From a virus, in IMG/VR virus record IMGVR_UViG_3300045988_048443: DNA of 64,000 bases, one strand, 5' to 3'. Below the pieces are notes generated by a model. The model searched no databases, was not told the DNA's origin, and was given only the letters and a program-made list of their open reading frames with translations. The translations under genes were made by a program, and so were the position numbers. The stretch's first letter is position 1; each line of letters starts with the position of its first letter. Shown piece by piece: positions 3,734 through 62,640 of the stretch.

Positions 3734-3792
3734 CCGCCCCGTAGAAGATGTAATTGGTAGAACTTCTACTAATCATGCCTTTTACGGGGCGG
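3734..3792 (+). repeat. GC-motif inverted pair (CCGCCCCGTAGAAGAT ... TACGGGGCGG) forming a hairpin element
   Basis: CCGCCCCGTA (3734-3743) is the exact reverse complement of TACGGGGCGG (3783-3792). An inner GTAGAAG (3741-3747) / CTTCTAC (3763-3769) stem has a 15-nt loop. The element starts 11 nt after the stop codon at 3721-3723. Confidence 0.8.
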
Positions 3793-3823
3793 CTTTCATA
3801 TTAATAATTCAAATAATACTACT

Positions 3824-4513
3824 ATGGCTTCACTTGCTCAACTTACTAGTGAAATTTTACATGGTGTAGGTCAGCCTAATAATCATACTCTACGTGAAAG
3901 AGTTCGTAATGCTATAATTCATACTCGTAATGAACTTATACGTAGAAGTTATGAAAACCATGCTTATGTTGATAAAATTCATACTCAACGTTTTAAAGTT
4001 TCACTTATCACAGTTAATGATGGTGACGTAGAACTACCTGAAGATTATGAAGGAGTTCCACTTGATAAAATTAAAAGAACTCTAGATAAAGTTCCAAGAC
4101 CTATTAGACTTACTAATAATCTTCCTTTTGATAGAGTTAGTTCTGTAGGTTATAAAACTAATAGAGAGTTTCCTTATATTAAAGAAACTACTGCTAGATT
4201 TAAAGGAAGTGTTCCTGGTCTTTGTGGTGCTATTAGTTACGACTATATTAATGAATATCTTTATTTATTTCCAGCTAGTAAAGATAAAATTGTTCCAGTA
4301 GATGCTATTGTTATAGAATCAGCTTTTGAACATCCTAATCAAATTCTAGATATTAATGGAGACCTTACTGTTGAGAATCATCTTTATGATGACAACGAGT
4401 GGTTACTTAGTGAAGATATGATTGGTCAAATTAAAGAAATAATATATAAAAGGGAACTATTAAACCAACATCAAGAAACAGATGAAGTTCCTAATGCTAT
4501 AAAATATAATTAG
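3824..4513 (+). CDS. Hypothetical virion structural-module protein
   Basis: 229-aa ORF, tightly packed with the following genes. No motif recognised. Confidence 0.6.
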   Translation: MASLAQLTSEILHGVGQPNNHTLRERVRNAIIHTRNELIRRSYENHAYVDKIHTQRFKVSLITVNDGDVELPEDYEGVPLDKIKRTLDKVPRPIRLTNNLPFDRVSSVGYKTNREFPYIKETTARFKGSVPGLCGAISYDYINEYLYLFPASKDKIVPVDAIVIESAFEHPNQILDINGDLTVENHLYDDNEWLLSEDMIGQIKEIIYKRELLNQHQETDEVPNAIKYN

Positions 4514-4516
4514 TGT

Positions 4517-5449
4517 ATGACTGCTGTAAGACTTAATCCAATAAATATGAGTAAGTATCATCAAGATATGAAAGATGCTTTTACTCTAGAACTTGAAAGA
4601 GCTAGACTTTCTTATGATGAACTAGCTAGTAACATAGTTGAAAAACGTTCTAAGATTGTTCCTTATGTTGATAGTTTTGCTCTTCCTGTAATTGACTATC
4701 CAGAGTTTCAACAGAATAAGTATATAAATGGTCGTCTTGAAAACGCTGCAAAAGGTATGTATGAAGATAAACGTAATGACCTTGAACATAAACATCTATG
4801 TTTTAGACTTGTTGCTTATGCTGTTGATTTACGAAAGATGAGTGAGTTAGAACAAAAGATTAAACTTTATGAGAAATGTATTGCTTTAAATTATGCTGAG
4901 TATAGAAAAATAATTGGTATATTTTATAATAAAGTACATGATGTTCTTATTCTTAAAGCTCATGGTTATCGTCTTGAAGGTAAACTAGGTTATATTTGCA
5001 TTAATAGAGTTCTTAATACTGGTTGTAAGATTTGTGATTTTGTTGCAACTAATAAATACAAGAAAGAACTTGAAGCTAAAGGCATTAGAATTTGGAATAG
5101 AGAAGAAGCTGAATTTGCTAAAGCTAATGGCTTAGAATATGATGCAGTTGACCCTAGGATTTATAAATCTGATGAAAGTTGGTATGAACTTGCTCTTTGT
5201 AATTGTACTCTTCATAGAGCTTATGGTTATAAATTAACCATGATTGATTATCGTTCTGTAAAAGTCAGACAATATAATAATGAAGGTTTGATTAAACTTA
5301 CTGGTGGTGATAAAGAAAAGATATGTCATTTACCTGTATCTCTAAAGATTAAACTAACTCTGTGTTTACAAGTAGATAAATTAATGTATACTAAATTTGT
5401 TAGAAATGAAAATCAAACAAAATGTGGATTTGAAACGCATCATTGGTAA
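4517..5449 (+). CDS. Hypothetical virion structural-module protein
   Basis: 310-aa ORF starting 4 nt after the previous stop. Confidence 0.6.
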   Translation: MTAVRLNPINMSKYHQDMKDAFTLELERARLSYDELASNIVEKRSKIVPYVDSFALPVIDYPEFQQNKYINGRLENAAKGMYEDKRNDLEHKHLCFRLVAYAVDLRKMSELEQKIKLYEKCIALNYAEYRKIIGIFYNKVHDVLILKAHGYRLEGKLGYICINRVLNTGCKICDFVATNKYKKELEAKGIRIWNREEAEFAKANGLEYDAVDPRIYKSDESWYELALCNCTLHRAYGYKLTMIDYRSVKVRQYNNEGLIKLTGGDKEKICHLPVSLKIKLTLCLQVDKLMYTKFVRNENQTKCGFETHHW

Positions 5450-6164
5450 AGTTGATAATGACTTTAATCTTAGCGAAAGCGATTGGATTCCTCGTGCTGC
5501 TGCTTGGATAATTGATGCACTTAGTCAAATGAAATGTCTTCCTATGGCTAAGAAAACTAGAAGACTTCAAATAGTTAATCGTATAGGTATATTTCCTTGT
5601 CAGTTAAATGCTATTGATATTAAAGTATTTGATGATTATGGTTGTGAAATAAAACAACTTGAATCTAATAATAGTTGTTGTAATTCAGGATTTGGTTCTA
5701 AAACTAATGTAGAACCTAGTCCTGAAATTGCTGTTATAGATGATACCAATAAAACTGGTCGTAATTTTATGAGAGTTGCAACTATTAGAAGAGCTGATGA
5801 TAGTCGTAACTTTGTAATAACTAATAATGGTCATATTGAACTTAACTTTGATACTGATTGGATAAACGTTCAAAGTTTTGAACCTATGACTTATTATGAT
5901 GATTATTACGATTGTGAAGTTCCAATGGTTTATGATAACGGTATTCTATTAGAAGCTATAAGTTTTTATATTCTATATAAATATCTTAGTCGTGGTAGTC
6001 ATCATCCAGTATATGATTTAAAAAGTAGTAGTCCTATTACTAATCCTTATATTCAATGGAAAGAATTAAAGAGTAAAGCTATTGCTTCTGTTCGTAATGA
6101 TTTATATAATGCTGATGGTTGGAGAAACTTCTTCTACAACTCAACATTTGACCCAAGAAGATAA
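5406..6164 (+). CDS. Hypothetical virion structural-module protein
   Basis: The ORF track starts at a TTG (5397). The first ATG is at 5406 (MKIKQNV...). Either start overlaps the upstream gene by 44-53 nt. Confidence 0.55.
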   Translation: MKIKQNVDLKRIIGKVDNDFNLSESDWIPRAAAWIIDALSQMKCLPMAKKTRRLQIVNRIGIFPCQLNAIDIKVFDDYGCEIKQLESNNSCCNSGFGSKTNVEPSPEIAVIDDTNKTGRNFMRVATIRRADDSRNFVITNNGHIELNFDTDWINVQSFEPMTYYDDYYDCEVPMVYDNGILLEAISFYILYKYLSRGSHHPVYDLKSSSPITNPYIQWKELKSKAIASVRNDLYNADGWRNFFYNSTFDPRR

Positions 6165-6169
6165 TAATT

Positions 6170-10615: not shown

Positions 10616-13177
10616 ATGACTGGAAAAATTAAAAGAAGAAGTCTTCGTTGTGGTGGTAGACCTAAAGCTGACTTCGGTAGTATTTTTACTACATTTATTG
10701 CTCCTGCTTTAGGTGTTGCTGGTTCTGTAGCAGATTCTGCTATAAGTAAAGCTCAAGTTTCAAAGAGCAATACTAAACCAGCTGTTAAAGAGACTAATAC
10801 AGAAGTTACTAATAACAATAATGCTTCTGTTGAAAATCTTCCTACTACTCAAGCTCCTACTAAAGAATCAATTAGCGGACTTGTTACTAGTAATACTATT
10901 ATTCCTCCTGACCCAACTAAAACTCCTGCTATGAGATTAGGCGGTAGAAAGAAATGTTGGATTGGTGCAGCTATTATGGGTGCTACTAGTATAGCAGGTT
11001 CTTTATTTGGTGCTGCTGCTCAAAAAAGAGAAATGCGTCGTCAAAAGAATATTCAAGATTGGCAGAATACTACTCAAGAAGCTGCTAATATGACTTCTGT
11101 TCTTAATAATAGTCAAGATTATCAAGAAGATTATCTTAGACAATTTAGAACTGCTGCTAGACTTGGTAAAACTCTTGGAGCTAAAGGTATTTATATTACT
11201 GATGGTGGAGATGCTACCAAGATAGGAAACAACACATACCTTCTACGGGGCGGCTCTCATGAAGATGTAAATGAGACTGGTCAAACAGGTATAGGTATCA
11301 ATGTTGGTGGTAACGAAGTTGAGGCTGAAGGCGGTGAAGTTGCTCAGAAGAAAAATGGTGCTCTAAGAATCTTTAGTGCTCAACCTATTCTTGGTAATGG
11401 TATGAGTCCTGCTCAAGCTATTCTTAGAGGTTATAATAAAGATTCTGTATTTAGTCAACAACAAGCTTTTAAGAAAAGAAATGGTCTTAAAGATGATGGT
11501 AGTGCTAAATATGGACTTGGTGGAGACATAAAAGGTATTTGGAACTTTATTAGAAGTTATAGAACTCCTGTTAATAACATTGCTGCTCTAGTTACTGCAT
11601 ATCAAAAATTAAATCCTAATAGTAACTATAATAAACAAAAAGGTAAGTTCAAAGGTGGTACTTTTAGAGGTGCTGGTGCAGGTGGTACTTGGACTAACGA
11701 TTATAAATCTAATAAAGGTTTCGATAACTTTAATGATGCTTATGATGACGCTGTAGAACATAATGCTAAAACTTTTATTTTTGGTAATAAGAGATATAAT
11801 ACTCTTAAAGAAAATAATCCTATTAGAGAAATTAATAATAGAGCTGTAGGTTCTTGGAGAGATAGTGTGGTTACTAAAGATAGAACTGGTTATGGTAAAG
11901 ATTTTGGACCTATAAAAGGTGGTGCTTCTTTGATTCCTCTAATTACAGAAACTTACAATCCTAAGAGAATTAAACATAAATTAGGTGGTGGTTTAACTTC
12001 TAAAGATAGAGGTTCTTCTAAACATCCTTATCCTTCTGTATCATCTAAAGATTTTGCAGGTAGTGGTAGAAGTTATCCTATTCCAACTAAAGCTGATGCT
12101 GTTGATGCTTTAAGACTTGCAGGTCTTCATGGAAGAAGTGATGTTAGAAGTAAAGTATTTAGTAAATATCCTAGTCTTAGAAAGAAAAGTTCGTTAGGCA
12201 GCTATACCTCCCCTGTAAAAGACATGAGACCTAAAGCTGGTACTGGTATGTATATTCCTTTTAATAAACGTTATACTTCTATTTATGATGCTCCAGATTA
12301 TGATTATGATTATAATGGTGGTAATGTTTTAGGTAATAATGAAGTAACAGTTACAGCTAAGAGAATTAAGCCTACTTTTATGAAACCAAATAATGATGCT
12401 ATGAATCTTATCAAAGTTCCTAAAGAAGAAGTTCCTTATATTCCACAACATCATAATCGTAGTCGTACTATATTTAGTGGTGGAGATTATTTAGGATTAG
12501 GTATTGATACTCTTGCTGCATTAAGTACAGGTCTCGTAAATTATAATACTGCTGGTAAGTATACTCTTCCTGATAGAGCTCCTATCATTCAAGCTAGTAA
12601 ATTACCTACAACTTATAATGTTAATCCTGAAATAGAAGAGGTTAAACGTTATAGAGATAGACTTACTGGACAAACTTTCAATAATACTTCAAGTTCTGTA
12701 GCTGCTCTTAATAGAAGTGGTGCTATTAATCTTGATGCTCTTTCTAATCTTAGTAAACTTTGGGCTACTAAAGAGAATGAAGAGAACAAGATGCTTACAG
12801 AAGATGCTAAGAATCAACAAACTGTTGCAGCACAAAATGTACAGAATGAACTTGCTCGTCAAAGTGAAATTGCTAGAATTAAAAATGAAGCTATTCAAGC
12901 TAAGGGTGATGCTCTTAATGTTGGTCTTAGTGGATTGTCTCAAGCTTGGACTAATTTCTGGACTGCTGGTAGAACTGCTTATGAAGATGACCAAGCTAGA
13001 CGTGCAATGGTTGCTTCTAGTAAAGATGCTACTCCTACTAGACTTATTGAAATGGGTTATGACTTATCTCCTGACCTTGTAGCTAGTCTTTATAGAACTG
13101 CTAAAGATGATAGAACTAAACGTTTCTATTTGTCTAGATTGTCTTCTGCTCAAAGACAAAGATACGGTATAAATTAA
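10616..13177 (+). CDS. Putative internal virion/ejection protein (853 aa) with Gly-rich hydrophobic segments and a C-terminal coiled coil
   Basis: Hydrophobic Gly/Ala-rich stretches (IFTTFIAPALGVAGSVADSAI; WIGAAIMGATSIAGSLFGAAA). Repeated basic-x-GG motifs. Q/E/A-rich helical C-terminus. Lies upstream of the RNAP block. Confidence 0.45.
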   Translation: MTGKIKRRSLRCGGRPKADFGSIFTTFIAPALGVAGSVADSAISKAQVSKSNTKPAVKETNTEVTNNNNASVENLPTTQAPTKESISGLVTSNTIIPPDPTKTPAMRLGGRKKCWIGAAIMGATSIAGSLFGAAAQKREMRRQKNIQDWQNTTQEAANMTSVLNNSQDYQEDYLRQFRTAARLGKTLGAKGIYITDGGDATKIGNNTYLLRGGSHEDVNETGQTGIGINVGGNEVEAEGGEVAQKKNGALRIFSAQPILGNGMSPAQAILRGYNKDSVFSQQQAFKKRNGLKDDGSAKYGLGGDIKGIWNFIRSYRTPVNNIAALVTAYQKLNPNSNYNKQKGKFKGGTFRGAGAGGTWTNDYKSNKGFDNFNDAYDDAVEHNAKTFIFGNKRYNTLKENNPIREINNRAVGSWRDSVVTKDRTGYGKDFGPIKGGASLIPLITETYNPKRIKHKLGGGLTSKDRGSSKHPYPSVSSKDFAGSGRSYPIPTKADAVDALRLAGLHGRSDVRSKVFSKYPSLRKKSSLGSYTSPVKDMRPKAGTGMYIPFNKRYTSIYDAPDYDYDYNGGNVLGNNEVTVTAKRIKPTFMKPNNDAMNLIKVPKEEVPYIPQHHNRSRTIFSGGDYLGLGIDTLAALSTGLVNYNTAGKYTLPDRAPIIQASKLPTTYNVNPEIEEVKRYRDRLTGQTFNNTSSSVAALNRSGAINLDALSNLSKLWATKENEENKMLTEDAKNQQTVAAQNVQNELARQSEIARIKNEAIQAKGDALNVGLSGLSQAWTNFWTAGRTAYEDDQARRAMVASSKDATPTRLIEMGYDLSPDLVASLYRTAKDDRTKRFYLSRLSSAQRQRYGIN
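11233..11256 (-). repeat. GC-motif copy (reverse orientation) inside a CDS
   Basis: The reverse complement reads GAGCCGCCCCGTAGAAGGTATGTG. In the host gene it encodes L-L-R-G-G-S. Confidence 0.85.
12207..12226 (+). repeat. Decayed GC-motif copy inside a CDS
   Basis: CCTCCCCTGTAAAAGACATG, compared with CCGCCCCGTAAAAGGTATG at 15351. Same reading frame, giving S-P-V-K-D-M. Confidence 0.4.
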
Positions 13178-14490: not shown

Positions 14491-16440
14491 ATGCTTAGTA
14501 AAAAAATATATGATAAATTTATAAGTGATGGAGATTTTGTTGGTGCAGCTAATTATTTATCTCGTGCTCACTTTAGTGACCCAGTTAAACAACAAATGGT
14601 TAATCAAACTATTAAAAGTCTTAGAACTGATGGTCGTAGAATACAAGGTATGATGTCTCATGCTGATGATATTCAAAAAGCTGCATATAGTTTTCTCAAT
14701 GCTGTAAATAATAATAATGTTCTTCCAGGTCTTAATAATGGTATAGATTCTGAAGGTAATAGACGTAAAAGTACTAATGGATTTAGTAAAGCTTATTCTG
14801 ACGCTTTAAGAAATTTAGGTAGTACAAAAACTACTGATGCTGAAGGAATATCTATTAAATTTGGTGGTAAGACTGAAAAAAGAACTTTATTTGGTATTGA
14901 TTGGTTAGCTAAAGATGTAGAATATAACGATGATGCTTTTAATGATATGTTGAAACGTACTCATCTTACTAAAGAAGCTTTAATAAAAGCTGGTGCTAAG
15001 ATTAAAGTTCAAAATGGTCAATATATTCTTGATATTAGTAAACGTAGTTCTTTATTTAATAAGATATACGATGGTATTCGTAATATTAAAAACGATAAAG
15101 GTTTATATAGATTTCAAATAGCTGGAGTTGACGCTAAAGGTAATATAATAAAAAATAATGAAAGTTATCGTCCAGCTTCTGCTATGGAAAGAGGTGAACT
15201 TAAACATCAAGGTGTTAATGTTGCTACAAGAGTTGGAGCTTCCTCAAGTCCTATAGAAGAATCAGATGGATATTACTTTAATCCTAGTGTTTCGATGATT
15301 AATAATTTTGAAGCTCCAGCTAAAACTATAGAAAATGCCAATCAAACTATCCGCCCCGTAAAAGGTATGAGTGGTGATGGAAGTGAAGTATCTACTGTTA
15401 GTTCTATGATTCTTCCTTTTAATAGTGCTCGTAGAAAACAGATTAGTGATGCTCTTAATACTGGTAGACTTAATACTGAATTAGCTAATGCTTTAGTAAA
15501 AGAGAATGGTAATGCTATTCTTAATGGTCTTATGAATGCTGATTTTACTCAATATGAAATGTATGTTACTGATGAGGAAAATCCTGATGACCATACTACT
15601 GTTCGCCATTCAGTAGATACTAGTAACGAAAAAGCTAATATTCAAGATTTATTACGTGCTGCTATTGCTAGTGGAAAGTTTGACCCAGAAACTCAAGTTT
15701 CTCTTGGTATGCAAGGTAATCAAACTGGTTATGTTATTACTATTCCAACTAAGATGGATAAGAATACAGAAACAGGTAATAGAGTTGAAGATATTAAAGA
15801 GAATAGTCGTCAAATATTTATTCCTGATTTTATGAATGGTGAAGCTGAGAAACTATTCTCTCAAAATTCTCAGACTAGAGCTATGAAAGAACTTGCTAGT
15901 ATGGAAATGTATAATTATCCTGTTGATATTCCTCAAGATGGTAGACTTAATGTTTATAATGACCCTTCTACAGGAAAGGCAGTTTATCAAATGGAATATG
16001 ATAGTGGTAGAGTACAATCTTTAACTAGAGATGATGCACTTCGTAAAGTTAATAAAATGCTCATAGTTGAAGATGGTATTGATTTAGCTAATAAACAATT
16101 TTATGATGAAGATGGTAATCTCCGTAAAGGTCTTAAAAATAAAGATGGTTCTTTAAATGCCCAATTTCAACAAGATTTAAGTAGACAAATAGATACTTAT
16201 GTTACTAGTGCTATGAGTGAACTTTATCCACAAGCTTGGCAAAGTTTTGCTCCTATTGCTAATAATGTTATAAATGGAGATTTTTCATCTGAAGAATATA
16301 AGACTAAATTAGCTAAAGCTATGGATAGTTTTGTAGATACAGATAATATTAATCTTATTAATAATCAAAGAGCTATTTATTCTAATTATATTCTTAGTAA
16401 TATAGGAATGTATGATAATGATGCTTATAACATTGATTAA
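14491..16440 (+). CDS. Putative internal virion protein (649 aa)
   Basis: Long ORF tightly packed between neighbours (6-nt and 2-nt gaps). No motif recognised. Confidence 0.5.
   Translation: MLSKKIYDKFISDGDFVGAANYLSRAHFSDPVKQQMVNQTIKSLRTDGRRIQGMMSHADDIQKAAYSFLNAVNNNNVLPGLNNGIDSEGNRRKSTNGFSKAYSDALRNLGSTKTTDAEGISIKFGGKTEKRTLFGIDWLAKDVEYNDDAFNDMLKRTHLTKEALIKAGAKIKVQNGQYILDISKRSSLFNKIYDGIRNIKNDKGLYRFQIAGVDAKGNIIKNNESYRPASAMERGELKHQGVNVATRVGASSSPIEESDGYYFNPSVSMINNFEAPAKTIENANQTIRPVKGMSGDGSEVSTVSSMILPFNSARRKQISDALNTGRLNTELANALVKENGNAILNGLMNADFTQYEMYVTDEENPDDHTTVRHSVDTSNEKANIQDLLRAAIASGKFDPETQVSLGMQGNQTGYVITIPTKMDKNTETGNRVEDIKENSRQIFIPDFMNGEAEKLFSQNSQTRAMKELASMEMYNYPVDIPQDGRLNVYNDPSTGKAVYQMEYDSGRVQSLTRDDALRKVNKMLIVEDGIDLANKQFYDEDGNLRKGLKNKDGSLNAQFQQDLSRQIDTYVTSAMSELYPQAWQSFAPIANNVINGDFSSEEYKTKLAKAMDSFVDTDNINLINNQRAIYSNYILSNIGMYDNDAYNID
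15351..15369 (+). repeat. GC-motif copy inside a CDS
   Basis: CCGCCCCGTAAAAGGTATG, encoding I-R-P-V-K-G-M. Confidence 0.85.
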
Positions 16441-47197: not shown

Positions 47198-47280
47198 ACT
47201 ATTAAGTTATTTAATATTTTAATTTTGTTTCTAACAAATTGAATTTAGTTATATGAATAACTAATAAGCAGGCACAATAA

Positions 47281-47335
47281 AGCCGCTCACGTATTAAGTA
47301 AAGTGGAAATCTACCACATTTTCTACGGGGCGGCT
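47281..47335. repeat. GC-motif copy with a decayed inverted partner, forming a hairpin element
   Basis: The reverse complement of 47314-47335 reads AGCCGCCCCGTAGAAAATGTGG. The partner AGCCGCTCACGTA is at 47281-47293. AGCCGC (47281-47286) pairs with GCGGCT (47330-47335). The element starts 14 nt after the stop codon at 47350-47352. Confidence 0.75.
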
Positions 47336-47349
47336 CTAGCAATTTAATG

Positions 47350-49874: not shown

Positions 49875-51018
49875 ATCTAATAGTTTCTTTAATAAAAGTA
49901 TCTATTTCATCATTATTGAATTTATCATGTAAATCAGCAAAATCTTTACACTCATAATCTTCAAGTCCAAATTCTCCACGAGTAATAAAAAGATAAGGAA
50001 TACCATACGTTTCTAAAAGATAATCAGCACCATCACGTCCGGTTCTATCAAAATCTAGAAGACTAACAATCATACCTTCATTATTAAGTCTTTTTCTAAG
50101 CCAAGTATATTCATTAGCTTTAAGTCTATAATTTTCACTAGGAAGATTAACAACTCCAATATTAAGAGTTTTTCCATCCGCCCCGTAGAAGATATGTTTG
50201 CTTAGATGACTACCTAAACTTAATCTATCTTTACTAGACTTAGTTATAATAATATAATCATAATCTTCTCTTTCTAGATTAGGAAGACCTTCAAGTACAT
50301 TACAATTAGTTACAAACTTTAATTCCTTAGTTCTATCACGTAATGGAAAATATAGTTTAATAAGATATACTCCAGATTTATTACGACCAAGCATATAAGC
50401 ATAACAAGGGTCATTCTTAGCATCTTTATATTTAGGAGTAGGATTAGTTACTCTATCAATATAATACTGCTCAACTGGAATAACAAAATGAGTATTAAGA
50501 TAATTCAAATCTACATTTAATTTAGCCCATATAGCTTTATCTTGACGATTCCAACTACGAGGAACAATTTCAATAATAGCTTTTTTCTTACGAGCTTTAA
50601 CGAGAGCATTCTTTATAGATTCGTCTACATTATAATCATTAACACGATTATCGATTTGATATGAAAACGTTCTATAAATATGACTTAGTACAAAATAAAA
50701 ATCTTGTTTATTATTTGTACTAATTGGTCTTTCATATACAATACTTAGTACGTAAGCTACTACACCATATACATCATCAAAGAAACCAGCACCACCAAAA
50801 TCACGAACTTTAAGCCTACCTTTGGCATTGTATGCAATACCCATACTACCATCAGTATCATCATCACGAAATACAGAAGTAATAAGATGATTATGTTCAA
50901 CACAATCTCTAACTACTTCTAATGGTATATCTAAGTATTTACTTACAATTTCTTCTTGACTTACTCTAGATTCTATAAAAGCTTTTGTAAGTTTACTTGT
51001 GTTAGCATTACGTTTCAT
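49792..51018 (-). CDS. DnaG-like DNA primase (Toprim domain)
   Basis: The C-terminal part has Toprim-like IIITKSSKDRLSL and LLDFDRTGRDGADYL (DxD). The N-terminal region aligns by eye to the primase zinc-ribbon region, but the cysteines are absent. Confidence 0.55.
   Translation of the reverse strand: MKRNANTSKLTKAFIESRVSQEEIVSKYLDIPLEVVRDCVEHNHLITSVFRDDDTDGSMGIAYNAKGRLKVRDFGGAGFFDDVYGVVAYVLSIVYERPISTNNKQDFYFVLSHIYRTFSYQIDNRVNDYNVDESIKNALVKARKKKAIIEIVPRSWNRQDKAIWAKLNVDLNYLNTHFVIPVEQYYIDRVTNPTPKYKDAKNDPCYAYMLGRNKSGVYLIKLYFPLRDRTKELKFVTNCNVLEGLPNLEREDYDYIIITKSSKDRLSLGSHLSKHIFYGADGKTLNIGVVNLPSENYRLKANEYTWLRKRLNNEGMIVSLLDFDRTGRDGADYLLETYGIPYLFITRGEFGLEDYECKDFADLHDKFNNDEIDTFIKETIRYVEIRYRKDKSDTDAYFKRLSDCDLPY
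50178..50196 (+). repeat. GC-motif copy, antisense to its host CDS
   Basis: CCGCCCCGTAGAAGATATG. In the primase gene it encodes F-Y-G-A-D-G. Confidence 0.9.
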
Positions 51019-54090: not shown

Positions 54091-55506
54091 TTAATCGACA
54101 ATACAATAAGCATTATTATTATCAACTTTAACATTTCTATCAAAATCGTTAATTATTGTATGATTGATTGGAACAGCCCTATCTTCTAGTTTTTTCTCCT
54201 CTAACGTGCCTTTATAAAATAAGGTGTATAATAATACCTCATTACTGAAATGAACCTTAGAAAGCCTATAGAAATAGCTCTCAATAGTATCACATAAGGG
54301 AGAAGTGATTATAACCAAATCAATATCAACATCTAAAGACTTGTCAGGCGAAGCACCACAAGAAATTACATTTATCTTATGAGTGTTCATAAGTTTTTGT
54401 GCAAGTTTCTTTTGAGCAATAACACCTAGAAGTTTAGGTTGACCTTTCTTTGGACCACTCTTTACAAGAATAGGATTTCCATAATCATCTACAGCAGGAA
54501 CATTATCTACTTTATCATGGCAATTAGCACAAATTCTTTTACCAGATTTATCATTAAGATAATCAGTAACAAGATTAGCAAATTCACCATACTTGTTTAT
54601 AATGAGTATATTCTTGTCTGAATTGTTATTGACTATATCTAAGATATTACTAAGTTTATCTTTAGAACTAGCAAGTTTAGTACTACGTTCTCTAACAATA
54701 TTATAAATACTATCAGCACGTTCTTTAATAGCAGAAGGACTATAAAGTCTATCTATATCTCTATTAAATTCTGAAGACATATCTAGATGATTATCCCAAC
54801 CATTAGTACGAGCAATAGCATCACATATCATCATACTAGAACAATTAGTAACACTATTTCCTAATCGAGCATACTTAATATTATCAAAGTTACCAAATAT
54901 AGCTAGAGCAGTAGAAATTTCCCTATTATAATAGTTCATTTCTTTATCTAGTTCACTATCAGGTACTATAGTTAATCCTACCAAACACTCTTTTACGGGG
55001 CGGTTAGACCTAACTTCATCAATAACATTTTGACTAAAGTTACCAATACTAGGAGCAACAGTATAGAAATCATCCATAGTTTTACTATCTAGTAGCTTAT
55101 TGAGAATTACTAGATTAAACTTAGACTTTTCTATCATAGCTATATGTACAAAATGAAATATACTAGGATTATAAATTATAGTCAGTAGAGGACTATAATC
55201 ATTAATATGTTCAGCAGCATATTCAGTAGTTAAAATCCTAAGACTTCCATTATGTATTACAGTACGAAAAGAATTATTCCATACTTCATTGTTCAAAGTA
55301 GTTAAATAACTTTCAATACTACTTCTATCTGCAAAATCTTTCACAATAATAACAACACTAGTCGTAGGAGACTTATTGTAAAGTTGTGGAAGAATATAAA
55401 GCAGAGGTCTTAGAGCATCAAAAGGAGCAGGTATTACAAAAGTACCTATTCCTTTATTTAATCTCCAAACATCAACAGCATTTAAATAAACTTGTTCTTC
55501 TGTCAT
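54091..55506 (-). CDS. Helicase-like protein with degenerate motifs (tentative)
   Basis: 471 aa. The C-terminal LDVDIDLVIITSPLCDTIESYFYRLSKV resembles SF2 motifs V-VI. I could find no canonical Walker A (GxxxxGK[ST]). Confidence 0.3.
   Translation of the reverse strand: MTEEQVYLNAVDVWRLNKGIGTFVIPAPFDALRPLLYILPQLYNKSPTTSVVIIVKDFADRSSIESYLTTLNNEVWNNSFRTVIHNGSLRILTTEYAAEHINDYSPLLTIIYNPSIFHFVHIAMIEKSKFNLVILNKLLDSKTMDDFYTVAPSIGNFSQNVIDEVRSNRPVKECLVGLTIVPDSELDKEMNYYNREISTALAIFGNFDNIKYARLGNSVTNCSSMMICDAIARTNGWDNHLDMSSEFNRDIDRLYSPSAIKERADSIYNIVRERSTKLASSKDKLSNILDIVNNNSDKNILIINKYGEFANLVTDYLNDKSGKRICANCHDKVDNVPAVDDYGNPILVKSGPKKGQPKLLGVIAQKKLAQKLMNTHKINVISCGASPDKSLDVDIDLVIITSPLCDTIESYFYRLSKVHFSNEVLLYTLFYKGTLEEKKLEDRAVPINHTIINDFDRNVKVDNNNAYCIVD
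54986..55005 (-). repeat. GC-motif copy (reverse orientation), co-oriented with its host CDS
   Basis: The reverse complement reads AACCGCCCCGTAAAAGAGTG. It encodes N-R-P-V-K-E. Confidence 0.85.
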
Positions 55507-57776: not shown

Positions 57777-58335
57777 TTATTAATTTAATTATTTCCATTC
57801 CATTATAATTATTATCTTTATTAGCAGTAAGCCATTTAACTAGACGATTACGAAATTCATCGTATTTAGTATCATCTATAAACTTAATAAAAGGAGAGTA
57901 ATTTGTACTATAAACATAAGGAGCTATATAATATAGTTTATCTTTACCTTTAGTAATATCAAAACCAAAATTAGTAGCAGCATTACCAAGAAGCATTATC
58001 TTCTTGATATTATTAATTCTAATATCAGCAAATGTATGAAGCATACATCTATTAGCTATATATTGATTTACAGGACAACGTTCGTCAAGCTTACAACGGA
58101 TAAGAGGAACAATATAGGGGTCTAGTTGTTCTAGACCCCCCGTAAGAGATGTGATAGTTTCCTTTACTATTTCCACATACTTACTAAACGTCATTCCTCT
58201 ATTCTTATAAGCATTGTAATCAACATTAGGTACAACAATAATCATACCTGACATTGGATTACCAATACCATCAAAACATTTGCACTTAGTATTAAACATA
58301 CCTAAAGCACAATTATCACATACTTTAGGAATCAT
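57766..58335 (-). CDS. Uracil-DNA glycosylase superfamily-like protein (divergent family 4-like)
   Basis: The N-terminus (CDNCAL...GIGNPMSGMIIVVPNVD) parallels the family-4 UDG layout C..C.L...G.G....lmivGEaPG, but the catalytic residues are diverged. The gene is adjacent to the polymerase gene. Confidence 0.4.
   Translation of the reverse strand: MIPKVCDNCALGMFNTKCKCFDGIGNPMSGMIIVVPNVDYNAYKNRGMTFSKYVEIVKETITSLTGGLEQLDPYIVPLIRCKLDERCPVNQYIANRCMLHTFADIRINNIKKIMLLGNAATNFGFDITKGKDKLYYIAPYVYSTNYSPFIKFIDDTKYDEFRNRLVKWLTANKDNNYNGMEIIKLINDS
58136..58153 (+). repeat. GC-motif copy (C6 variant), antisense to its host CDS
   Basis: CCCCCCGTAAGAGATGTG. It encodes S-L-T-G-G-L. Its C-run also pairs with GGGGTCTAG at 58117-58125. 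Confidence 0.85.
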
Positions 58336-59276: not shown

Positions 59277-60759
59277 ATCTTAAATATACTTTTTCTTTAG
59301 CTCTACTAACAGCAACATAAAGTCGCTTATTAATATCACTAGCATTAGTGTATGGTCTACCATATTTATCATAAACAATATCCATAACATCTACCATGCT
59401 TACATTATAAGTTGAGCCTTGCGATTTATGACTGCTTATTGCAAAACCATAATCTAAATCTCTATAATAAAGAATAGAACCATCAGGTCTACCAATATTA
59501 ACAAGAAGAAGACATGATTCTTTAAATTTATAATAAGCTTTCCATTTAGAAGCACGAATATCTTTACGAGCATTCTTAGCTTGTTGAATTAAATCATCAG
59601 CAATTTTACAATACATAGCCATAGTATATTTATCTCTATGGTCTATAATAAATAATGGAGAAGTAACTTGACCACCAAATACAGCTTGAAATTTAACCAT
59701 GAAACCTTTAAGCTCATATTGTGGATGAGTATAATTAGCTATCTCTTTTACAATATAATCTTCACTATTCTGAATAATTGCATCATTAAATTGGTCAACA
59801 ATAGTAACATAAGAAGTAATTAAATCATTCTTAGTAATAACAGATTTTTCACTGTCTTTAATTATACTTTCTCTAATAAATTTATTCCAATTAGAAACAG
59901 CTTTATTAGTATAAGATATAACTTTAACATAATCAGTATTACGAGTAATTGCTTCATCGCTAAATTGTTTCACAACTTCTTGTTGAAATTGAGCAGAATT
60001 ACAAACTACAAATCCTTTAGTCATAGTATTATCAAATTTACTACGATTACGAGATATATAATTTAGGAAGTTAAAAGTTCCATTATAAACATCACCACGA
60101 AGAAGTTCAGTAAGAGTTCTTATAGGATTATCTTCATCTTGTCGTACAATCTGTGTAAGTCTGAAAGATGTAACGCCTTTAAAAGCATAACTATCCTTCT
60201 CATTTACGGGCGGGATTTGTGCATCATCACCACATAGTATAAGTTTAATACTATACTTCTTCATCATCTTATCAATATAAGTAACAAGACTACGATTAAG
60301 CATAGAACTTTCATCTACTATATATAGACGATAATCTTCAATCTTTATACGACCATAAGAAGCAAAAGTAACATTATTAATATCAAACTTTTCAATATCA
60401 TAATTAGGTTTAAAACCAAAATCAGATTGAATAGTATTAACATTACAATGAGTACCTCTAATACTATTTTTAAGAACTCTACAAGCTTTATGACTTGGAG
60501 CACTTAAACCTATTTCAGAGAATGGTATATTACAATCTTGAAGTAAAGCTTTAAGAAGAAAAGTTTTACCAGTACCACCAGGACCAATTAAAGCACGCTT
60601 AAAATCTTTAGGATTATAAGGTTCATTAATAAACTTAATAAGTCCATTATAAGCTTTTGTTTGGTCATCTGTAAAAGTAAACTTTTTAGCTCTATCTCTA
60701 GTCATATTAGGAGTATTTATAGGTATAGCTCCAAATGTAAGTTCATCTTCATTGTGCAT
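59266..60759 (-). CDS. SF1 DNA helicase (Dda/RecD-like)
   Basis: Walker A GPGGTGKT. Walker B YIVDESSM. Motif III CGDDAQIPPV. Motif V SSHKSQGSTY. Motif VI LYVAVSRAKEKVY. Confidence 0.85.
   Translation of the reverse strand: MHNEDELTFGAIPINTPNMTRDRAKKFTFTDDQTKAYNGLIKFINEPYNPKDFKRALIGPGGTGKTFLLKALLQDCNIPFSEIGLSAPSHKACRVLKNSIRGTHCNVNTIQSDFGFKPNYDIEKFDINNVTFASYGRIKIEDYRLYIVDESSMLNRSLVTYIDKMMKKYSIKLILCGDDAQIPPVNEKDSYAFKGVTSFRLTQIVRQDEDNPIRTLTELLRGDVYNGTFNFLNYISRNRSKFDNTMTKGFVVCNSAQFQQEVVKQFSDEAITRNTDYVKVISYTNKAVSNWNKFIRESIIKDSEKSVITKNDLITSYVTIVDQFNDAIIQNSEDYIVKEIANYTHPQYELKGFMVKFQAVFGGQVTSPLFIIDHRDKYTMAMYCKIADDLIQQAKNARKDIRASKWKAYYKFKESCLLLVNIGRPDGSILYYRDLDYGFAISSHKSQGSTYNVSMVDVMDIVYDKYGRPYTNASDINKRLYVAVSRAKEKVYLRYGY
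60205..60214 (-). repeat. Decayed GC-motif copy inside the helicase motif III codons
   Basis: TACGGGCGGG; the reverse complement reads CCCGCCCGTAAATGAG. It encodes I-P-P-V-N-E in the same P-V frame as the other co-oriented copies. This may be coincidental, because PPV is a conserved helicase motif. Confidence 0.35.
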
Positions 60760-61537: not shown

Positions 61538-61589
61538 TTTACAAAAAGTTTAATTAATTAATACTATTATTACTTCATCAATAAGATGA

Positions 61590-61895
61590 TTATATTTTCT
61601 TTATATCTTCTATATTACAATAAATATATGTAGTTTTATCTGTAAAACACATAACTCTTGGTGTTTTATTTCTATCTATTATTATTCTGTATATTACAGC
61701 ACCAATATGAGATTTTCCATAAATATTTTTATTTACATTACAGATAACTTTATCGTCTACTTGTAGAGGAATATGATTATCATTAAAGAATTTATTAGTT
61801 AAATTCTTAATTCTATTATTATAATCAATACGAGCAGTATCCGCTTCTTTAATAAAATAAGAAACAGTTTCTTCTTTAATATTTTCCATAATCAT
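61590..61895 (-). CDS. Hypothetical protein
   Basis: 101-aa ORF. Confidence 0.5.
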   Translation of the reverse strand: MIMENIKEETVSYFIKEADTARIDYNNRIKNLTNKFFNDNHIPLQVDDKVICNVNKNIYGKSHIGAVIYRIIIDRNKTPRVMCFTDKTTYIYCNIEDIKKI

Positions 61896-62215
61896 TAAAA
61901 TAAATCGTTTAATTTATATTCTTTTTCAACTTTATAATCAGTATGGTCTTGATATGAATAACCAATTAATATAACTTCATTATTTTCATTAATTCTAGCA
62001 CTAATTGGTTCAAAACGTACAGGAGTACAAACTATATCTATAGTTTTATTAGAAGTAATATTATTCTCTATAAGAATTTTTCTACCTACTTCACGCAAAC
62101 CTTTATTATAAGCTTCCATAAGTTTATTTTTAAACTTATCGTCATTACAATTATTTGCTCTACTTTTAAAATATTCAAAAGGAGCAATAGCTGTTATATA
62201 TTCTTCATATTTCAT
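61895..62215 (-). CDS. Hypothetical protein
   Basis: 106-aa ORF with a 1-nt overlap. Confidence 0.5.
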   Translation of the reverse strand: MKYEEYITAIAPFEYFKSRANNCNDDKFKNKLMEAYNKGLREVGRKILIENNITSNKTIDIVCTPVRFEPISARINENNEVILIGYSYQDHTDYKVEKEYKLNDLF

Positions 62216-62239
62216 AACTTTATTATTTTATTTATTAGG

Positions 62240-62290
62240 AGTTCTGCTTGGTTTCGCACCATAAGCCGTATTACTACACTTAGCAGAACT
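62240..62290. other. Intergenic hairpin (9-bp stem, 33-nt loop)
   Basis: AGTTCTGCT (62240-62248) pairs with AGCAGAACT (62282-62290). No T-run follows on either strand. It lies next to the GC-motif copy at 62303. Confidence 0.5.
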
Positions 62291-62298
62291 TAATTACT

Positions 62299-62640
62299 CT
62301 AGCCTCCCCGTAGAGAAGTTAGCATACAATTGTTTTCCTTTTCTAACTTATCACATATATTAAGTATGAAATTAATACCAGCATGTCTAACATCAATTAT
62401 ATCTTTAATTACAGTAGTCATATCATGCTGACTTAATCTCATAAGATAATATATAGTTCTAAAACCTCTACGAGTATTAAGAGGAAAGTTATAAGGAATA
62501 ACATAACCTTTACGTTTTGAAGAATGTTTATAAAAGTCTTTTTTATCAACATAACCATTACATTGTACAACTTCTCCAAAATCAGGTGGACAACAATGTC
62601 TTGTATCAAACTGATAAAGACAACTATTACATAGTATCAT
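62299..62640 (-). CDS. Hypothetical Cys-rich protein
   Basis: 113 aa. N-terminal CNSC...HCCPP...C cluster, possibly metal-binding. The C-terminus ...TSLRGG is encoded by a GC-motif copy. Confidence 0.5.
   Translation of the reverse strand: MILCNSCLYQFDTRHCCPPDFGEVVQCNGYVDKKDFYKHSSKRKGYVIPYNFPLNTRRGFRTIYYLMRLSQHDMTTVIKDIIDVRHAGINFILNICDKLEKENNCMLTSLRGG
62303..62318 (+). repeat. GC-motif copy, antisense, forming the last codons of a CDS
   Basis: CCTCCCCGTAGAGAAG. It encodes S-L-R-G-G-stop. Confidence 0.8.

Follow-up and report, generated by a model that had tools for sequence, protein, structure and literature searches.

What could a GC-rich word be doing that recurs on both strands of an AT-rich phage genome, inside genes as well as between them? 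The question is raised by a 64,000-nt stretch of viral DNA (herein the window; G+C 27–33%) from a crAss-like gut phage of the Intestiviridae, subfamily Obtuvirinae. Its closest record is the uncultured phage cr8_1 (Intestiviridae, Obtuvirinae, Fohxhuevirus), with 65–90% nucleotide identity over collinear blocks. We found no description of this motif or its function in the literature.

A GC-Rich Motif Recurs on Both Strands

The heptamer CCCCGTA occurs exactly 17 times in the window (10 copies on the + strand and 7 on the - strand; table 1), compared with 0.38 on average, and never more than 3, in 100 dinucleotide-preserving shuffles; the excess is real and stronger than the initial annotation, which had estimated about one chance occurrence, had claimed. 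Eleven copies lie inside ORFs, where synonymous-codon shuffling yields 0.05 (maximum 2) and shuffling of codon order 0.09. Every copy falls within a linear motif of ~20 bp, tA.AGCCGCCCCGTAGAAGAT.TG, and the context common to the copies (tA.AgCCgCCCCGTAgAAGat.Tg) spans roughly -8 to +15 relative to the heptamer, with a continuous conserved block of ~17 bp that lacks 10-bp periodicity. The motif is asymmetric and occurs on both strands, at intervals of roughly 4 kb. A position weight matrix (PWM) scan is cleanly bimodal, placing all 17 copies at 22–41 bits and none between 8 and 21 bits, and adds one further degenerate copy. Around single copies we detected neither covariation nor excess folding energy, indicating a linear site rather than a fold.

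Several details of the initial annotation were borne out: the motif accounts for about half of the C4/G4 runs in the window (17 of 36), the segments 30343–30361 and 50178–50196 (core of the latter at 50181) are identical over exactly 19 nt, and the decayed look-alikes near 12207, 47281, and 60205 are real. Its - strand coordinates were exact, whereas those on the + strand mark the start of the longer context, 2–4 nt before the heptamer.

Table 1. Motif copies, decayed copies, and hairpins in the window
Feature	Position	Strand	Location and remarks	Relatives
Motif copy	3729..3752	+	Intergenic; core CCCCGTA at 3737; 34.4 bits; 14 nt past stop of ORF 3226-3723; 5' arm of hairpin with 3783	
Motif copy	3774..3797	-	TACGGGG at 3783; 38.9 bits; inverted partner of 3737; upstream of IHF-like gene 3824-4513	Orthologous to cr8_1 37725/37798 and cr271_1 31907/31986
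Hairpin of 3737/3783 inverted pair	3734..3792	+	-35.7 kcal/mol, z = -7.8	
Motif copy	11235..11258	-	ORF 10616-13177, antisense, read LLRGGS; 41.1 bits	In 311-bp island with 88% identity to cr8_1; remainder of gene unalignable
Degenerate copy CCTCCCCTGTAAAAGACATG	12203..12228	+	Site 12211+ (CCTCCCCTGTAAAAGAC); 1-nt insertion in core; 21.8 bits	
Motif copy	15346..15369	+	ORF 14491-16440, sense, read IRPVKGM	
Motif copy	20147..20170	-	ORF 16443-23621, antisense, read SSTGGLE	
Motif copy	22443..22466	+	ORF 16443-23621, sense, read SHPVEDV	Orthologous copies in cr271_1, ctcc615
Motif copy	26855..26878	-	4608-aa virion-RNAP-like ORF, antisense, read LYGAD	Orthologs in cr8_1, cr271_1, ctcc615, crAss002 at 25-46% protein identity
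Motif copy	30338..30361	+	4608-aa ORF, sense, read SRPVEDM	Orthologous copies in cr8_1, cr271_1, ctcc615
Motif copy	37529..37552	+	6 nt past stop of 4608-aa ORF; upstream of tRNA-Gln	Same post-stop site in cr8_1, cr271_1, ctcc615
Motif copy	40640..40663	-	Intergenic, between ORFs 39840-40436 and 40721-41002; one arm of inverted pair	
Motif copy	40696..40719	+	Weaker, 22.1 bits; second arm of pair; 11 nt past stop of ORF 40721-41002	
Hairpin of 40649/40704 pair	40644..40714	-	-28.2 kcal/mol, z = -3.6	Orthologous to cr8_1 46/113
Motif copy	44919..44942	+	ORF 44657-45307, antisense, read FTGGVE	Common to cr8_1
Decayed inverted partner of 47324 (AAGCCGCTCACGTATTAAG)	47280..47298	+		
Motif copy	47315..47338	-	Intergenic; 20 nt past stop of ORF 47350-47706	
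Motif copy	50173..50196	+	Primase-like ORF 49792-51018, antisense, read FYGADG	Orthologous copies in cr8_1, cr271_1, crAss002; decayed in ctcc615
Motif copy	54985..55008	-	SNF2-like helicase ORF 54091-55506, sense, read NRPVKE	Orthologs in cr8_1, cr271_1, ctcc615; 1-mismatch copy at same place in crAss002
Motif copy	58130..58153	+	UDG-like ORF 57766-58335, antisense, read LTGGLE	Orthologous copies in cr8_1, cr271_1, ctcc615
Decayed look-alike ATCCCGCCCGTAAATGAGAAGG	60195..60216	-	Site 60205- (CCCGCCCGTAAATGAG); inside ORF 59266-60759	
Motif copy	62298..62321	+	3' end of ORF 62299-62640, antisense; motif CTAG supplies the stop codon of this ORF	Near-identical in cr8_1

Distribution among crAss-Like Phages

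The core is over-represented in 8 of the 8 Intestiviridae genomes sampled, including the cultured crAss002 and a Carjivirus, amounting to about 17–28 sites at fixed places per ~95-kb genome. There are 27 distinct copies in cr8_1 (a 28th match is the terminal duplication of the record), 17 in cr271_1, 19 in ctcc615, 15 in crAss002, 17 in Carjivirus C0521BW15, and 18 in 50 kb of cr3_1, and in ctbg_1 the core is enriched as the variant CTGGCCCGTAAAG. Around this common core the flanks are lineage-specific and constitute what we term dialects. The core is absent from the two Suoliviridae genomes examined; likewise, crAss001 has no copies as against the 15 of crAss002, both of which infect Bacteroides. 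A related-looking dispersed motif, CTCCAGAAG (compare CTCC-CCCGT-AGAAG), does occur in crAss001, and among replication proteins BLAST detects similarity between this phage and the Intestiviridae for the primase only; that similarity and the related-looking motif together suggest a link to the primase. Across 596 Gb of bacterial genomes a 20-mer version of the motif occurs only six times, in high-GC organisms or unrelated metagenome-assembled genomes, and never in Bacteroidales; these six matches are due to chance.

Positional Conservation and Selection on DNA

All alignable copies are common to the window and cr8_1 and occupy orthologous places, and orthologous copies are found across genera. 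Sites within the genes for the RNAP-like protein, primase, SNF2, and UDG are kept at 25–65% protein identity, and the motif uses all open frames, in both orientations. Of 130 alignments to IMG/VR relatives, 126 retain an intact core, as against 62% for control 7-mers, at loci that were ascertained by the motif. Selection acts at the DNA level, for the motif is kept through a change of reading frame (the primase-site copy of crAss002 is read PLRGN). At seven orthologous sites, the flanks of 22 of 28 copies best fit the consensus of their own genome; that flanks follow the dialect of each genome at orthologous positions implies selection on DNA together with a co-evolving trans factor. The initial annotation, which is partly supported overall, had named several possibilities and made no single claim, and the recognition site for a trans-acting factor is the entry favored by positions kept across genera, the survived frame change, and flanks that evolve with the genome.

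Placement, Spacing, and Orientation

Copies are scattered across both early and late modules, and their orientation is unrelated to the direction of transcription. About a third of them (38 of 112) are intergenic, as compared with 6–11% non-coding DNA; the other 74 (66%) lie in ORFs, 51 of these antisense to the mRNA. A promoter or ribosome-binding site, which had been discounted from the outset, is rejected here as well: the motif is oriented without regard to gene direction, antisense copies make up two thirds of those in ORFs, and published crAss-like promoters are sigma70-like tripartite motifs.

Copies are spaced more evenly than expected at random in the window, cr8_1, ctcc615, and the Carjivirus (P <= 0.002), as well as in cr271_1 (P = 0.04), but not in crAss002 (P = 0.40). 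With close pairs removed, orientations are interleaved in cr8_1 (18 of 21 alternations, P = 0.003) and in a combined test (69 vs. 51.9 +/- 4.7, P = 5e-5), the latter P value overstating independence since Intestiviridae genomes share homologous sites; taken singly, only two genomes, cr8_1 and crAss001, reach significance. We found no switch of motif strand at the convergent point near 38 kb and no AT-rich unwinding element adjoining the sites.

Intergenic copies lie 6–60 nt past stop codons, at a median distance of 44 nt from the gene 3' end, and some are inverted pairs that fold into strong hairpins (table 1); among single intergenic copies, 16 run with transcription and 8 against it. The copy at 47324 and its decayed partner fold at -22.6 kcal/mol over 47278–47338, and within the UDG-like ORF the C-run of the motif pairs with an upstream GGGGTCTAG (hairpin 58116–58140, -18.1 kcal/mol). 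Past the 4608-aa ORF, folding of the window pairs GTAGAAG of the motif with CTTCTAC at 37563–37569. The same site in cr271_1 and ctcc615 appears, from the flank read by eye, to have a different downstream complement. The hairpins of intergenic copies at gene ends, the regular spacing, and the family-wide occurrence had all escaped the initial annotation.

A Probable Recognition Site for a Trans Factor

We consider, with a probability of roughly 0.8, that the motif is recognized at the level of DNA by a trans factor: one sequence-specific factor would recognize the cis site and act on DNA itself, not on mRNA. The factor is common to the Intestiviridae and, we infer, phage-encoded, both most probably; searches of the conserved unknown proteins against Pfam, PHROGs, NCBIfam, and PDB sequences tied no protein to the motif. 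Because the site is asymmetric, its orientations interleaved, and its spacing regular, we propose, at close to even odds, that a strand-directional DNA transaction begins at, or is controlled by, each site, and we infer both this directionality and the nature of the transaction. Our first choice, a tentative one, is priming, that is, site-specific initiation of DNA synthesis at each site, where a template 5'-...CCCCGTA-3' would yield 5'-ACGGGG..., a G-rich primer expected to be stable in a 30% G+C genome; alternatively, a ColE2-Rep-like start may lie in the purine run GAAGA. Known DnaG-type primases, however, read 3–5 nt as against ~20 bp here, and a simple bidirectional theta mode predicts the strand switch near 38 kb that is not present. 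The lack of an AT-rich unwinding element also speaks against a directional or priming role, as do, for directionality in general, the absence of regular spacing in crAss002 and the confinement of significant interleaving to cr8_1 and crAss001. Where coding constraint is absent, copies are placed directly past stops, often as inverted pairs or with partial-complement pairing, and also serve as hairpins where transcripts end, in the manner of the uptake sequences of Neisseria and Haemophilus.

Most of the data would be accounted for just as well by a non-catalytic binding protein as by a directional transaction, and a phage protein that compacts, partitions, or silences the chromosome from ~20 fixed sites is possible, if on the unlikely side; candidate binders would be the conserved IHF/HU-like pair or, given a phage-plasmid lifestyle, a repressor-like protein. 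Carjivirus communis has been proposed to be a phage-plasmid, a lifestyle that would need genome-wide silencing (PMC10983915). Consistent with such binding are the asymmetric ~20-bp site with its dialects, dispersal over early and late modules, the coexistence of single and "bivalent" inverted sites, and IHF-like genes conserved in all Intestiviridae sampled, one of them directly downstream of the 3737/3783 pair. The C1 operators of P1 and the stoperators of mycobacteriophages are precedents for dispersed binding sites; stoperators, however, are intergenic and co-oriented with transcription, unlike a motif with 66% of its copies in ORFs and no such orientation. Interleaving further suggests that direction matters, the continuous ~17-bp block shows no 10-bp periodicity, and our protein searches identified no repressor. 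A site-specific nick and Chi-like control of a phage helicase-nuclease would be close alternatives to priming. Site-specific single-strand interruptions like those of T5, phiKMV-like, and tf/Rembedalsseter-like phages would here affect both strands of the virion DNA, and we consider them unlikely. The density is the same, at ~1 per 3.5–5 kb, the phage encodes its own ATP-dependent ligase, and the motif is, as known nick motifs are, asymmetric, mostly genic, and conserved across distantly related phages; those motifs, however, occupy one strand only (PMC11780129), as against a ratio of ~1:1 here. Moreover, nicks at conserved inverted pairs, 46–190 bp apart, would give staggered cuts, two nicks on opposite strands at a distance of 40–100 bp would risk double-strand breaks, and an HNH gene that adjoins one cr8_1 site is absent from the window.

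The initial annotation dismissed a Chi-like role too quickly, in that regular spacing and interleaved orientations fit directional logic and would be the optimal layout for a "self" marker (candidate word CCCCCGTA) read directionally by a helicase-nuclease, either phage SF1 or host AddAB/RecBCD, that would stop degradation and start recombination and be needed in both orientations everywhere. The density of sites matches that of E. coli Chi, and the phage encodes RecT, an SF1 helicase (AAA_30/PIF1/UvrD_C matches), and a Gp157/Gam-like protein; we nonetheless regard this role as improbable, as Chi sites measure 5–8 nt rather than ~20 bp with lineage-specific flanks, and conservation of single sites at 25% protein identity exceeds the level expected from weak per-site selection. 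A host Chi in particular is still unlikely, given the site length, the dialects, and the contrast between crAss001 and crAss002 in the same host genus. A terminator, processing site, or sRNA target in RNA would suit the hairpin-forming intergenic copies past stops, their 16:8 co-orientation, and the paired purine run at the RNAP-gene 3' end, but most copies lie in ORFs, largely antisense, and single copies lack structure. A simple intrinsic-terminator scan accepts only loops shorter than that of the full pair hairpin, which it missed, returning only a 6-pair stem in the 3783 arm followed by GCTTTCATAT, with no clear T-run. Such RNA-level use is quite improbable for the motif at large and likely a secondary role of the intergenic subset only. 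Sequence-specific base modification is very improbable: the site is specific and asymmetric, and ORF 44657-45307, which adjoins a ThyX gene, matches DUF1599 ("nucleotide modification associated domain 1") weakly and below threshold, but among the genomes compared cr8_1 alone shares this ORF, in contrast to the family-wide motif, and modification targets are normally short, neither evenly spaced nor fixed in position, with no over-representation expected. Least credible, and already largely refuted, is a short GC cluster, mobile or MITE-like, that spreads in the AT-rich genome; GC-rich repeats do occur in it, and some inverted pairs of 60–100 bp resemble MITEs, but alignable copies are orthologous in cr8_1 and across genera without presence/absence indels, motif-less sites, including those of crAss002, align gap-free (one being a 1-mismatch version), and the element, only ~20 bp long, has no target-site duplications.

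The motif is a trait of the whole family Intestiviridae. That the same genomic places are kept family-wide, even in essential genes, very probably means that a phage DNA-handling protein recognizes it.

A Dispersed GC-Rich Motif in an AT-Rich Phage Genome

The initial annotation had proposed that a GC-rich word built around the heptamer CCCCGTA is strongly over-represented in the window, and this claim holds: 17 exact copies occur (10 on the + strand and 7 on the -), against an average of 0.38 (at most 3) in dinucleotide-preserving shuffles, in DNA whose G+C content is 27-33% from end to end. Codon-preserving controls are decisive for over-representation, with 11 copies in ORFs compared with 0.05 after shuffling of synonymous codons and 0.09 after shuffling of codon order. 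Motif copies make up 17 of the 36 C4/G4 runs in the window, in line with the earlier count of about half, the 19-nt identity reported between 30343-30361 and 50178-50196 is exact, and the three decayed look-alikes (12211+, 47280-47298+ and 60205-) are present as described. Aligned in motif orientation, the copies share a linear block from about -8 to +15 (tA.AgCCgCCCCGTAgAAGat.Tg); a PWM scan scores the 17 copies at 22-41 bits, a single degenerate copy (12211+) at 21.8 bits and everything else at 8 bits or less, and because no further score exceeds 8 bits, sites are either present or absent. Rfam and ARAGORN searches of the window returned nothing at the motif, their sole match being a tRNA-Gln; the motif is not an RBS, a tRNA or an Rfam family.

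The phage is crAss-like, with two gene blocks that converge (+ genes up to 37.5 kb, among them ORFs of 4608 and 2392 aa, and - genes from 38.3 kb) and a GC skew that tracks this layout. Its nearest record is the uncultured phage cr8_1 (Intestiviridae, Obtuvirinae, Fohxhuevirus), which is collinear with it at 65-90% nucleotide identity. The first four ORFs of the window (408, 431, 104 and 165 aa; 201-3723) are matched by tblastn in none of the ten crAss-like genomes compared, cr8_1 included, and this variable region stops exactly at the 3737/3783 motif pair. The segment 45324-47264 (ORFs 45316-45561 and 45577-47043), bordered by motif copies at 44927 and 47281/47324, is not alignable with cr8_1, which has different genes at this locus and an HNH endonuclease nearby; the 488-aa ORF of the segment has 28% identity to a region of the Intestiviridae genome ctcc615 and a weak match to phrog_7247, with no match in Pfam or NCBIfam. 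Edges of cr8_1-alignable blocks at 3774, 11189-11499, 47264 and 62228 lie <100 bp from motif sites, and site 11244 is inside a 311-bp island of 88% identity within an otherwise unalignable gene. Motif sites could be recombination joints; mosaic breakpoints were nevertheless rejected as an explanation, being confounded with gene boundaries and not clearly above chance by a rough estimate.

Occurrence across the Intestiviridae

The motif is present in eight Intestiviridae genomes belonging to seven genera, with orthologous in-gene sites and with lineage-specific flanks, or dialects, around a common core; the consensuses across the family reduce the invariant part to CCCGTA followed by a purine run. 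Independent assemblies and a cultured isolate (ΦcrAss002, in which the 15 sites are also written TTCCCCCGTAAAGGAG) both have it, and it is therefore no artefact. No such motif was found in two Suoliviridae genomes (cr10_1 and cr113_1), and ΦcrAss001 (Steigviridae) has 0 copies of CCCCGTA in 100 kb. A 20-mer form of the motif is frequent in IMG/VR contigs, and those checked, very long ones included, are relatives of this phage. The same 20-mer has just six matches in 596 Gb of bacterial genomes, all of them chance occurrences, either in organisms of high G+C or in unrelated MAGs, with no match in Bacteroidales; a host origin was rejected on this near-absence. The dialects offer a simple sequence marker for typing Intestiviridae lineages in metagenomes.

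Motif copies, dialects and spacing regularity in Intestiviridae genomes (CV, coefficient for spacing after close pairs were collapsed)
Genome	Lineage	Copies	Consensus	Spacing CV	P
Window	Obtuvirinae	17		0.38	< 2e-4
cr8_1	Fohxhuevirus	27 distinct (28 matches, one being the record's terminal duplication)	CTCTAGCC[G/C]CCCCGTAAAAGGTATG	0.52	2e-4
cr271_1	Hacihdavirus	17	AGCTCCCCCGTAGAAGAgATG	0.64	0.04
ctcc615	Wotdevirus, mouse	19	CTAsCTCCCCCGTAGAAGG	0.43	< 2e-4
ΦcrAss002	Churivirinae, cultured, host B. xylanisolvens	15	TTTCCCCCGTAAAGGAG	0.88	0.40
C0521BW15	Carjivirus (genus of prototypical crAssphage)	17	TAGACyCCCCGTAGAGGATGGA	0.53	0.002
cr3_1	Diorhovirus	18 in 50 kb	gTTCCCCCGTAGAGGAA		
ctbg_1	Whopevirus	8-9 in 50 kb	CTGGCCCGTAAAG		

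Site-by-Site Conservation and Selection on DNA

Wherever a copy is alignable between the window and cr8_1, both genomes have it, and conservation of the motif usually exceeds that of the flanks. In distant genomes, orthologous sites were located by anchoring on protein alignments, which places copies at corresponding positions of the virion-RNAP-like, primase, SNF2 helicase and UDG genes (table of features); at site 50181 the crAss002 copy is in another reading frame (PLRGN vs FYGAD). Among more distant relatives in IMG/VR, at loci ascertained through the motif, 126 of 130 alignments preserve an intact core, compared with 62% for control 7-mers. Across six genomes the motif uses every open reading frame: sense copies within ORFs read xPV[E/K] (20) or PRK (3), antisense copies read [S/F]TG[G/E] (30), [L/F]YG[G/A] (13) or LRG (8), and the CCG-TAR frame is a stop, so that 51 antisense and 23 sense copies are about what the number of open frames predicts. 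The initial annotation had considered a short mobile GC cluster; this does not survive the comparison, in which alignable copies are all orthologous and motif-less orthologous sites align on protein anchors without an indel, and a mobile element or MITE was rejected, there being no insertion polymorphism, variable position or target-site duplication. Conservation together with the use of all frames therefore rules out both a protein motif and a recently mobile element.

The flanks have followed their lineages. Of 28 copies compared at seven orthologous sites, 22 match their own genome's consensus best in the flanks, and the other 6 match that of a sister genome. A given site has thus been adjusted to its lineage's dialect, as would be expected from one recognition factor drifting in specificity. 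Such a factor is likelier to be phage- than host-encoded because ΦcrAss001 has 0 copies and ΦcrAss002 has 15, both on Bacteroides.

Features of the window, by coordinate
Feature	Position (strand)	Setting	Observation
Palindrome	13190-13219	Between ORFs 10616-13177 and 13258-14484	Perfect 13-bp stem, ACTTCTGATAGTA-CTAT-TACTATCAGAAGT; looks like a bidirectional terminator, not made up of motif copies
tRNA-Gln (anticodon TTG)	37691-37762 (+)	Gap between convergent blocks	~150 nt downstream of the motif copy after the 4608-aa ORF; likewise just past the 3' end of the giant ORF in cr8_1 and cr271_1
91-aa ORF	38928-39203 (-)		Weak sub-threshold HEPN match (HEPN_STY4199, E = 3e-4)
216-aa ORF	44657-45307 (-)	Beside ThyX-like gene; motif copy inside	Weak match, below threshold (E = 5e-4), to DUF1599, 'nucleotide modification associated domain 1'; of the genomes compared, only cr8_1 has this ORF
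Predicted hairpin	3734-3792	Inverted pair	-35.7 kcal/mol
Predicted hairpin	40644-40714	Inverted pair	-28.2 kcal/mol
Predicted hairpin	47278-47338	Inverted pair, including decayed partner	-22.6 kcal/mol
Motif site	26864	Virion-RNAP-like gene	Orthologous copy in cr8_1, cr271_1, ctcc615 and crAss002, at 25-46% protein identity
Motif site	30346	Virion-RNAP-like gene	Orthologous copy in cr8_1, cr271_1 and ctcc615
Motif site	50181	Primase gene	Orthologous copy in cr8_1, cr271_1 and crAss002
Motif site	54994	SNF2 helicase gene	Orthologous copy in cr8_1, cr271_1 and ctcc615; 1-mismatch copy at the same place in crAss002
Motif site	58138	UDG gene	Orthologous copy in cr8_1, cr271_1 and ctcc615

Placement, Spacing, and Orientation

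Intergenic DNA holds 38 of the 112 copies in six genomes, of which only 6-11% is non-coding, and 6 of the 17 in the window (6.4% non-coding, P = 5e-4); these copies lie a median of 44 nt from the 3' end of a gene, and several form close inverted pairs with strong predicted hairpins. The three such hairpins in the window (z from -7.8 to -2.7) are 6-66 nt from stop codons. Like terminators, they are stable, GC-rich and placed right after a stop codon, their tails being T-rich without a clear run (GGCTTTCATATT, GGCTTTATTGT) and their loops longer than the terminator scan permits. Just past the stop codon of the 4608-aa, virion-RNAP-like ORF, the purine run of another copy pairs with a downstream complement when the window sequence is folded; cr8_1, cr271_1 and ctcc615 also have this post-stop site, with a different downstream complement in cr271_1 and ctcc615 as read by eye, unfolded, from the printed flank. 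A function at the RNA level can hold only for this intergenic subset, as a secondary use of the motif; uptake sequences in Neisseria and Haemophilus have the same dual use, with inverted pairs between genes serving as terminators. Around single copies we found no mutual information between columns (no covariation with the flanks) and no excess folding energy, on which grounds a structured RNA or ssDNA element was rejected there, and no AT-rich unwinding element lies beside motif sites. In form, the element is a linear site.

In five genomes the copies are spaced more regularly than chance predicts (P <= 0.04), with crAss002 as the exception. Both strands are used about equally (10 + and 7 - in the window, 13 + and 14 - in cr8_1, 54 + and 58 - in the six-genome set), and orientation is independent of transcription and of the side of the convergent point on which a copy lies. 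Orientations are nonetheless interleaved relative to label permutation, with 18 of 21 alternations in cr8_1 (P = 0.003) and, combined over all genomes except the window, 69 vs 51.9 +/- 4.7 (P = 5e-5, an optimistic value because Intestiviridae genomes have homologous sites in common). Strict alternation, at first 22 of 26 in cr8_1, fails in cr271_1, ctcc615, crAss002 and Carjivirus and was rejected; interleaving is retained only as a statistical tendency.

A Separate Dispersed Motif in ΦcrAss001

ΦcrAss001 (MH675552) has its own dispersed asymmetric motif, [A/T/G]CTCCAGAAG[G/T] (e.g., 1580, 6485, 8022 ... 99095), with 27 copies of CTCCAGAAG vs ~1.2 expected, in both orientations (14 sense and 13 antisense to genes) and interleaved (19 of 26 alternations, P = 0.004). 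In sequence it resembles the Intestiviridae motif minus its centre (CTCC-CCCGT-AGAAG). The primase is the sole replication protein with BLAST-detectable similarity between the Intestiviridae and ΦcrAss001.

This phage and that of the window belong to different families and otherwise have almost no BLAST-detectable protein similarity. A 67-aa segment of the window (11984-12181, aa 457-522 of ORF 10616-13177) is 72% identical to part of ΦcrAss001 gp45 (42773-42973), which suggests a horizontally exchanged module of a tail or cargo protein; ΦcrAss001 motif copy 42834 is within the gp45 segment, and the degenerate window copy 12211 is just past its counterpart. When the RNAP-like proteins are aligned, albeit weakly (22% identity), the sense copy at window 30346 and the sense CTCCAGAAG at ΦcrAss001 59147 come within ~10 codons of each other (30310-30361, LNQKESRPVED, vs 59120-59160, ILQKEVEEL); the two may be orthologous between the families, or their proximity may be a coincidence.

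Proposed Function and Its Rivals

We consider it probable, at roughly 80%, that the motif is a DNA site acting in cis and recognized by a sequence-specific factor. That the factor performs a directional, strand-specific act repeated along the genome is an evenly balanced proposition, put forward because the site is asymmetric, its orientations are interleaved and its spacing is regular on both strands. Our first choice for such an act is that each site would start DNA synthesis site-specifically. T7 primase reads the template 5'-GGGTC-3'; read in the same manner, 5'-CCCCGTA-3' as template would yield a primer 5'-ACGGGG..., whose G-rich sequence would be stable in a genome of 30% G+C, and if a site were lost, a long stretch of DNA would go unprimed, which would account for the site-by-site conservation. 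The layout of the motif would also suit a polymerase or primase start site: the promoters of T7, T3 and SP6 and the primase sites of ColE2 Rep and RSF1010 RepB' are continuous asymmetric sites of ~20 bp that co-evolve with their enzyme, and the motif is like them in its lineage-specific upstream part, invariant centre and purine-rich start (SP6 ...TATAGAAGAG vs ...CCCGTAGAAGAG). We count the primase similarity between the Intestiviridae and ΦcrAss001 in favor of priming; counted against it are the recognition length of known DnaG-type primases, 3-5 nt, the lack of a strand switch of the motif at the convergent point and the failure of the searches to link any protein to the motif. T7-type promoters all point along genes, unlike the motif with its mixed orientation. 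Published crAss-like promoters are sigma70-like tripartite motifs, sense and upstream of middle and late genes, and a promoter motif common to the genes of the crAss-like virion RNAP is lacking (bioRxiv 10.1101/2020.03.07.982082). A crAss-like promoter was accordingly rejected, in agreement with the initial annotation: the motif is GC-rich, differs from -35/-10 elements and has mixed orientation.

Other known systems share parts of this pattern. The closest precedent in phages would be a site-specific nick: the nick-associated motifs of T5, phiKMV-like and tf/Rembedalsseter-like phages (WACTRTGAC) are short and asymmetric, with ~9-13 copies per 45 kb, lie mostly in genes and are conserved across phages with little nucleotide similarity, with no known function (PMC11780129). 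The Intestiviridae motif is likewise asymmetric, conserved across related phages and found in genes too; however, known nick motifs are confined to one strand (PMC11780129) and clustered toward one genome end, whereas here both strands, regular spacing and inverted pairs are seen, the site is longer (~20 bp), and nicks at the conserved inverted pairs would give staggered breaks. If a phage helicase-nuclease were controlled in a Chi-like way, the layout would be explained but the 20-bp length would not. Chi is an over-represented directional motif, ~1 per 4-5 kb, needed in both orientations on linear DNA, which is 5-8 nt long and set by the host enzyme (RecBCD/AddAB); the Intestiviridae site differs in its length, in its phage-lineage dialects and in its occurrence in one of two Bacteroides phages (0 in ΦcrAss001 vs 15 in ΦcrAss002). 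The short forms that bear on a host-Chi reading are CCCCCGTA and TACGGGGG.

Non-directional binding, for architecture, partition or silencing, is a serious rival. The stoperators of mycobacteriophage cluster A and the C1 operators of P1 are asymmetric 13-17-bp sites with ~15-35 copies genome-wide, including some inverted 'bivalent' sites, and their sequence co-evolves with the binding protein, much as the motif flanks co-vary with lineage (22/28). These sites are mostly intergenic, and stoperators are co-oriented with transcription and have a known cognate repressor, whereas 74 of the 112 motif copies are in ORFs (23 sense, 51 antisense). No HTH or repressor family was found in the window ORFs scanned, whose proteins are highly divergent and which exclude ~29 kb of the genome lying beyond the window. 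A phage-plasmid lifestyle has been proposed for Carjivirus communis (PMC10983915), which lends this rival added weight.

Candidates for a binding or processing protein are the primase-like protein (49792-51018), ORFs of 158 aa (49398-49874), 165 aa (48907-49404) and 271 aa (52212-53027), a DUF932 protein (40992-42044), the SSB-like protein, the SF1 and SNF2 helicases and the IHF-like pair (3824-4513 and 4517-5449). Conserved ORFs of no assigned family had no usable match in Pfam, PHROGs, NCBIfam or PDB sequence searches; among them are two small ORFs located between the primase and ligase genes, and a ctcc615 ortholog of one of these is annotated 'Cas1-like'. Among the matches listed for ORF 48907-49404 (at least 120), all are at least 93% identical to the query, an alignment too shallow for structure prediction. 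The HNH endonuclease beside cr8_1 site 86689 was rejected as the factor, being missing from the window.

Significance for crAss-Like Phages

We found no description of the motif in the full-text literature, subscription journals being outside the search. Dispersed recognition motifs are already known in phages (nick motifs, stoperators, P1 operators), and the Intestiviridae motif fails a defining feature of each kind, be it confinement to one strand or intergenic and co-oriented placement. It unites properties otherwise seen in bacterial uptake sequences. The DUS of Neisseriaceae and USS of Pasteurellaceae are read by the competence machinery at ~1 copy per kb, and have a core with flanks, dialects, both orientations, even spacing and preferred reading frames; the motif has the same core and flanks, dialects, orientations, even spacing, fit to particular frames in genes and gene-end inverted pairs, but it belongs to a phage, involves no uptake and occurs once per 3.5-5.5 kb, so that the likeness is one of logic and not of membership.

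crAss-like phages rank among the most abundant human gut viruses and, to our knowledge, their replication and gene control are largely uncharacterized. The motif is kept in place even within polymerase, primase, helicase and virion-RNAP genes, and its length, family-wide conservation, fixed in-gene places and shifting flanks point to an unrecognized, putatively essential DNA-protein interaction, which is directly testable because ΦcrAss002, with its 15 copies, is available in culture and a Carjivirus has been reported to be cultured as well. We offer as a speculative and rather unlikely extension that the Intestiviridae replicate or repair their AT-rich genomes from fixed, even, strand-interleaved sites of ~20 bp, recognized by a phage enzyme dedicated to them and drifting in specificity by lineage, with CTCCAGAAG as an analogous code in ΦcrAss001. 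If true, this would amount to a 'genome-wide priming or processing code' that runs through essential genes, a new organization of phage DNA replication or recombination, and an inbuilt self-recognition signature of crAss-like phages.
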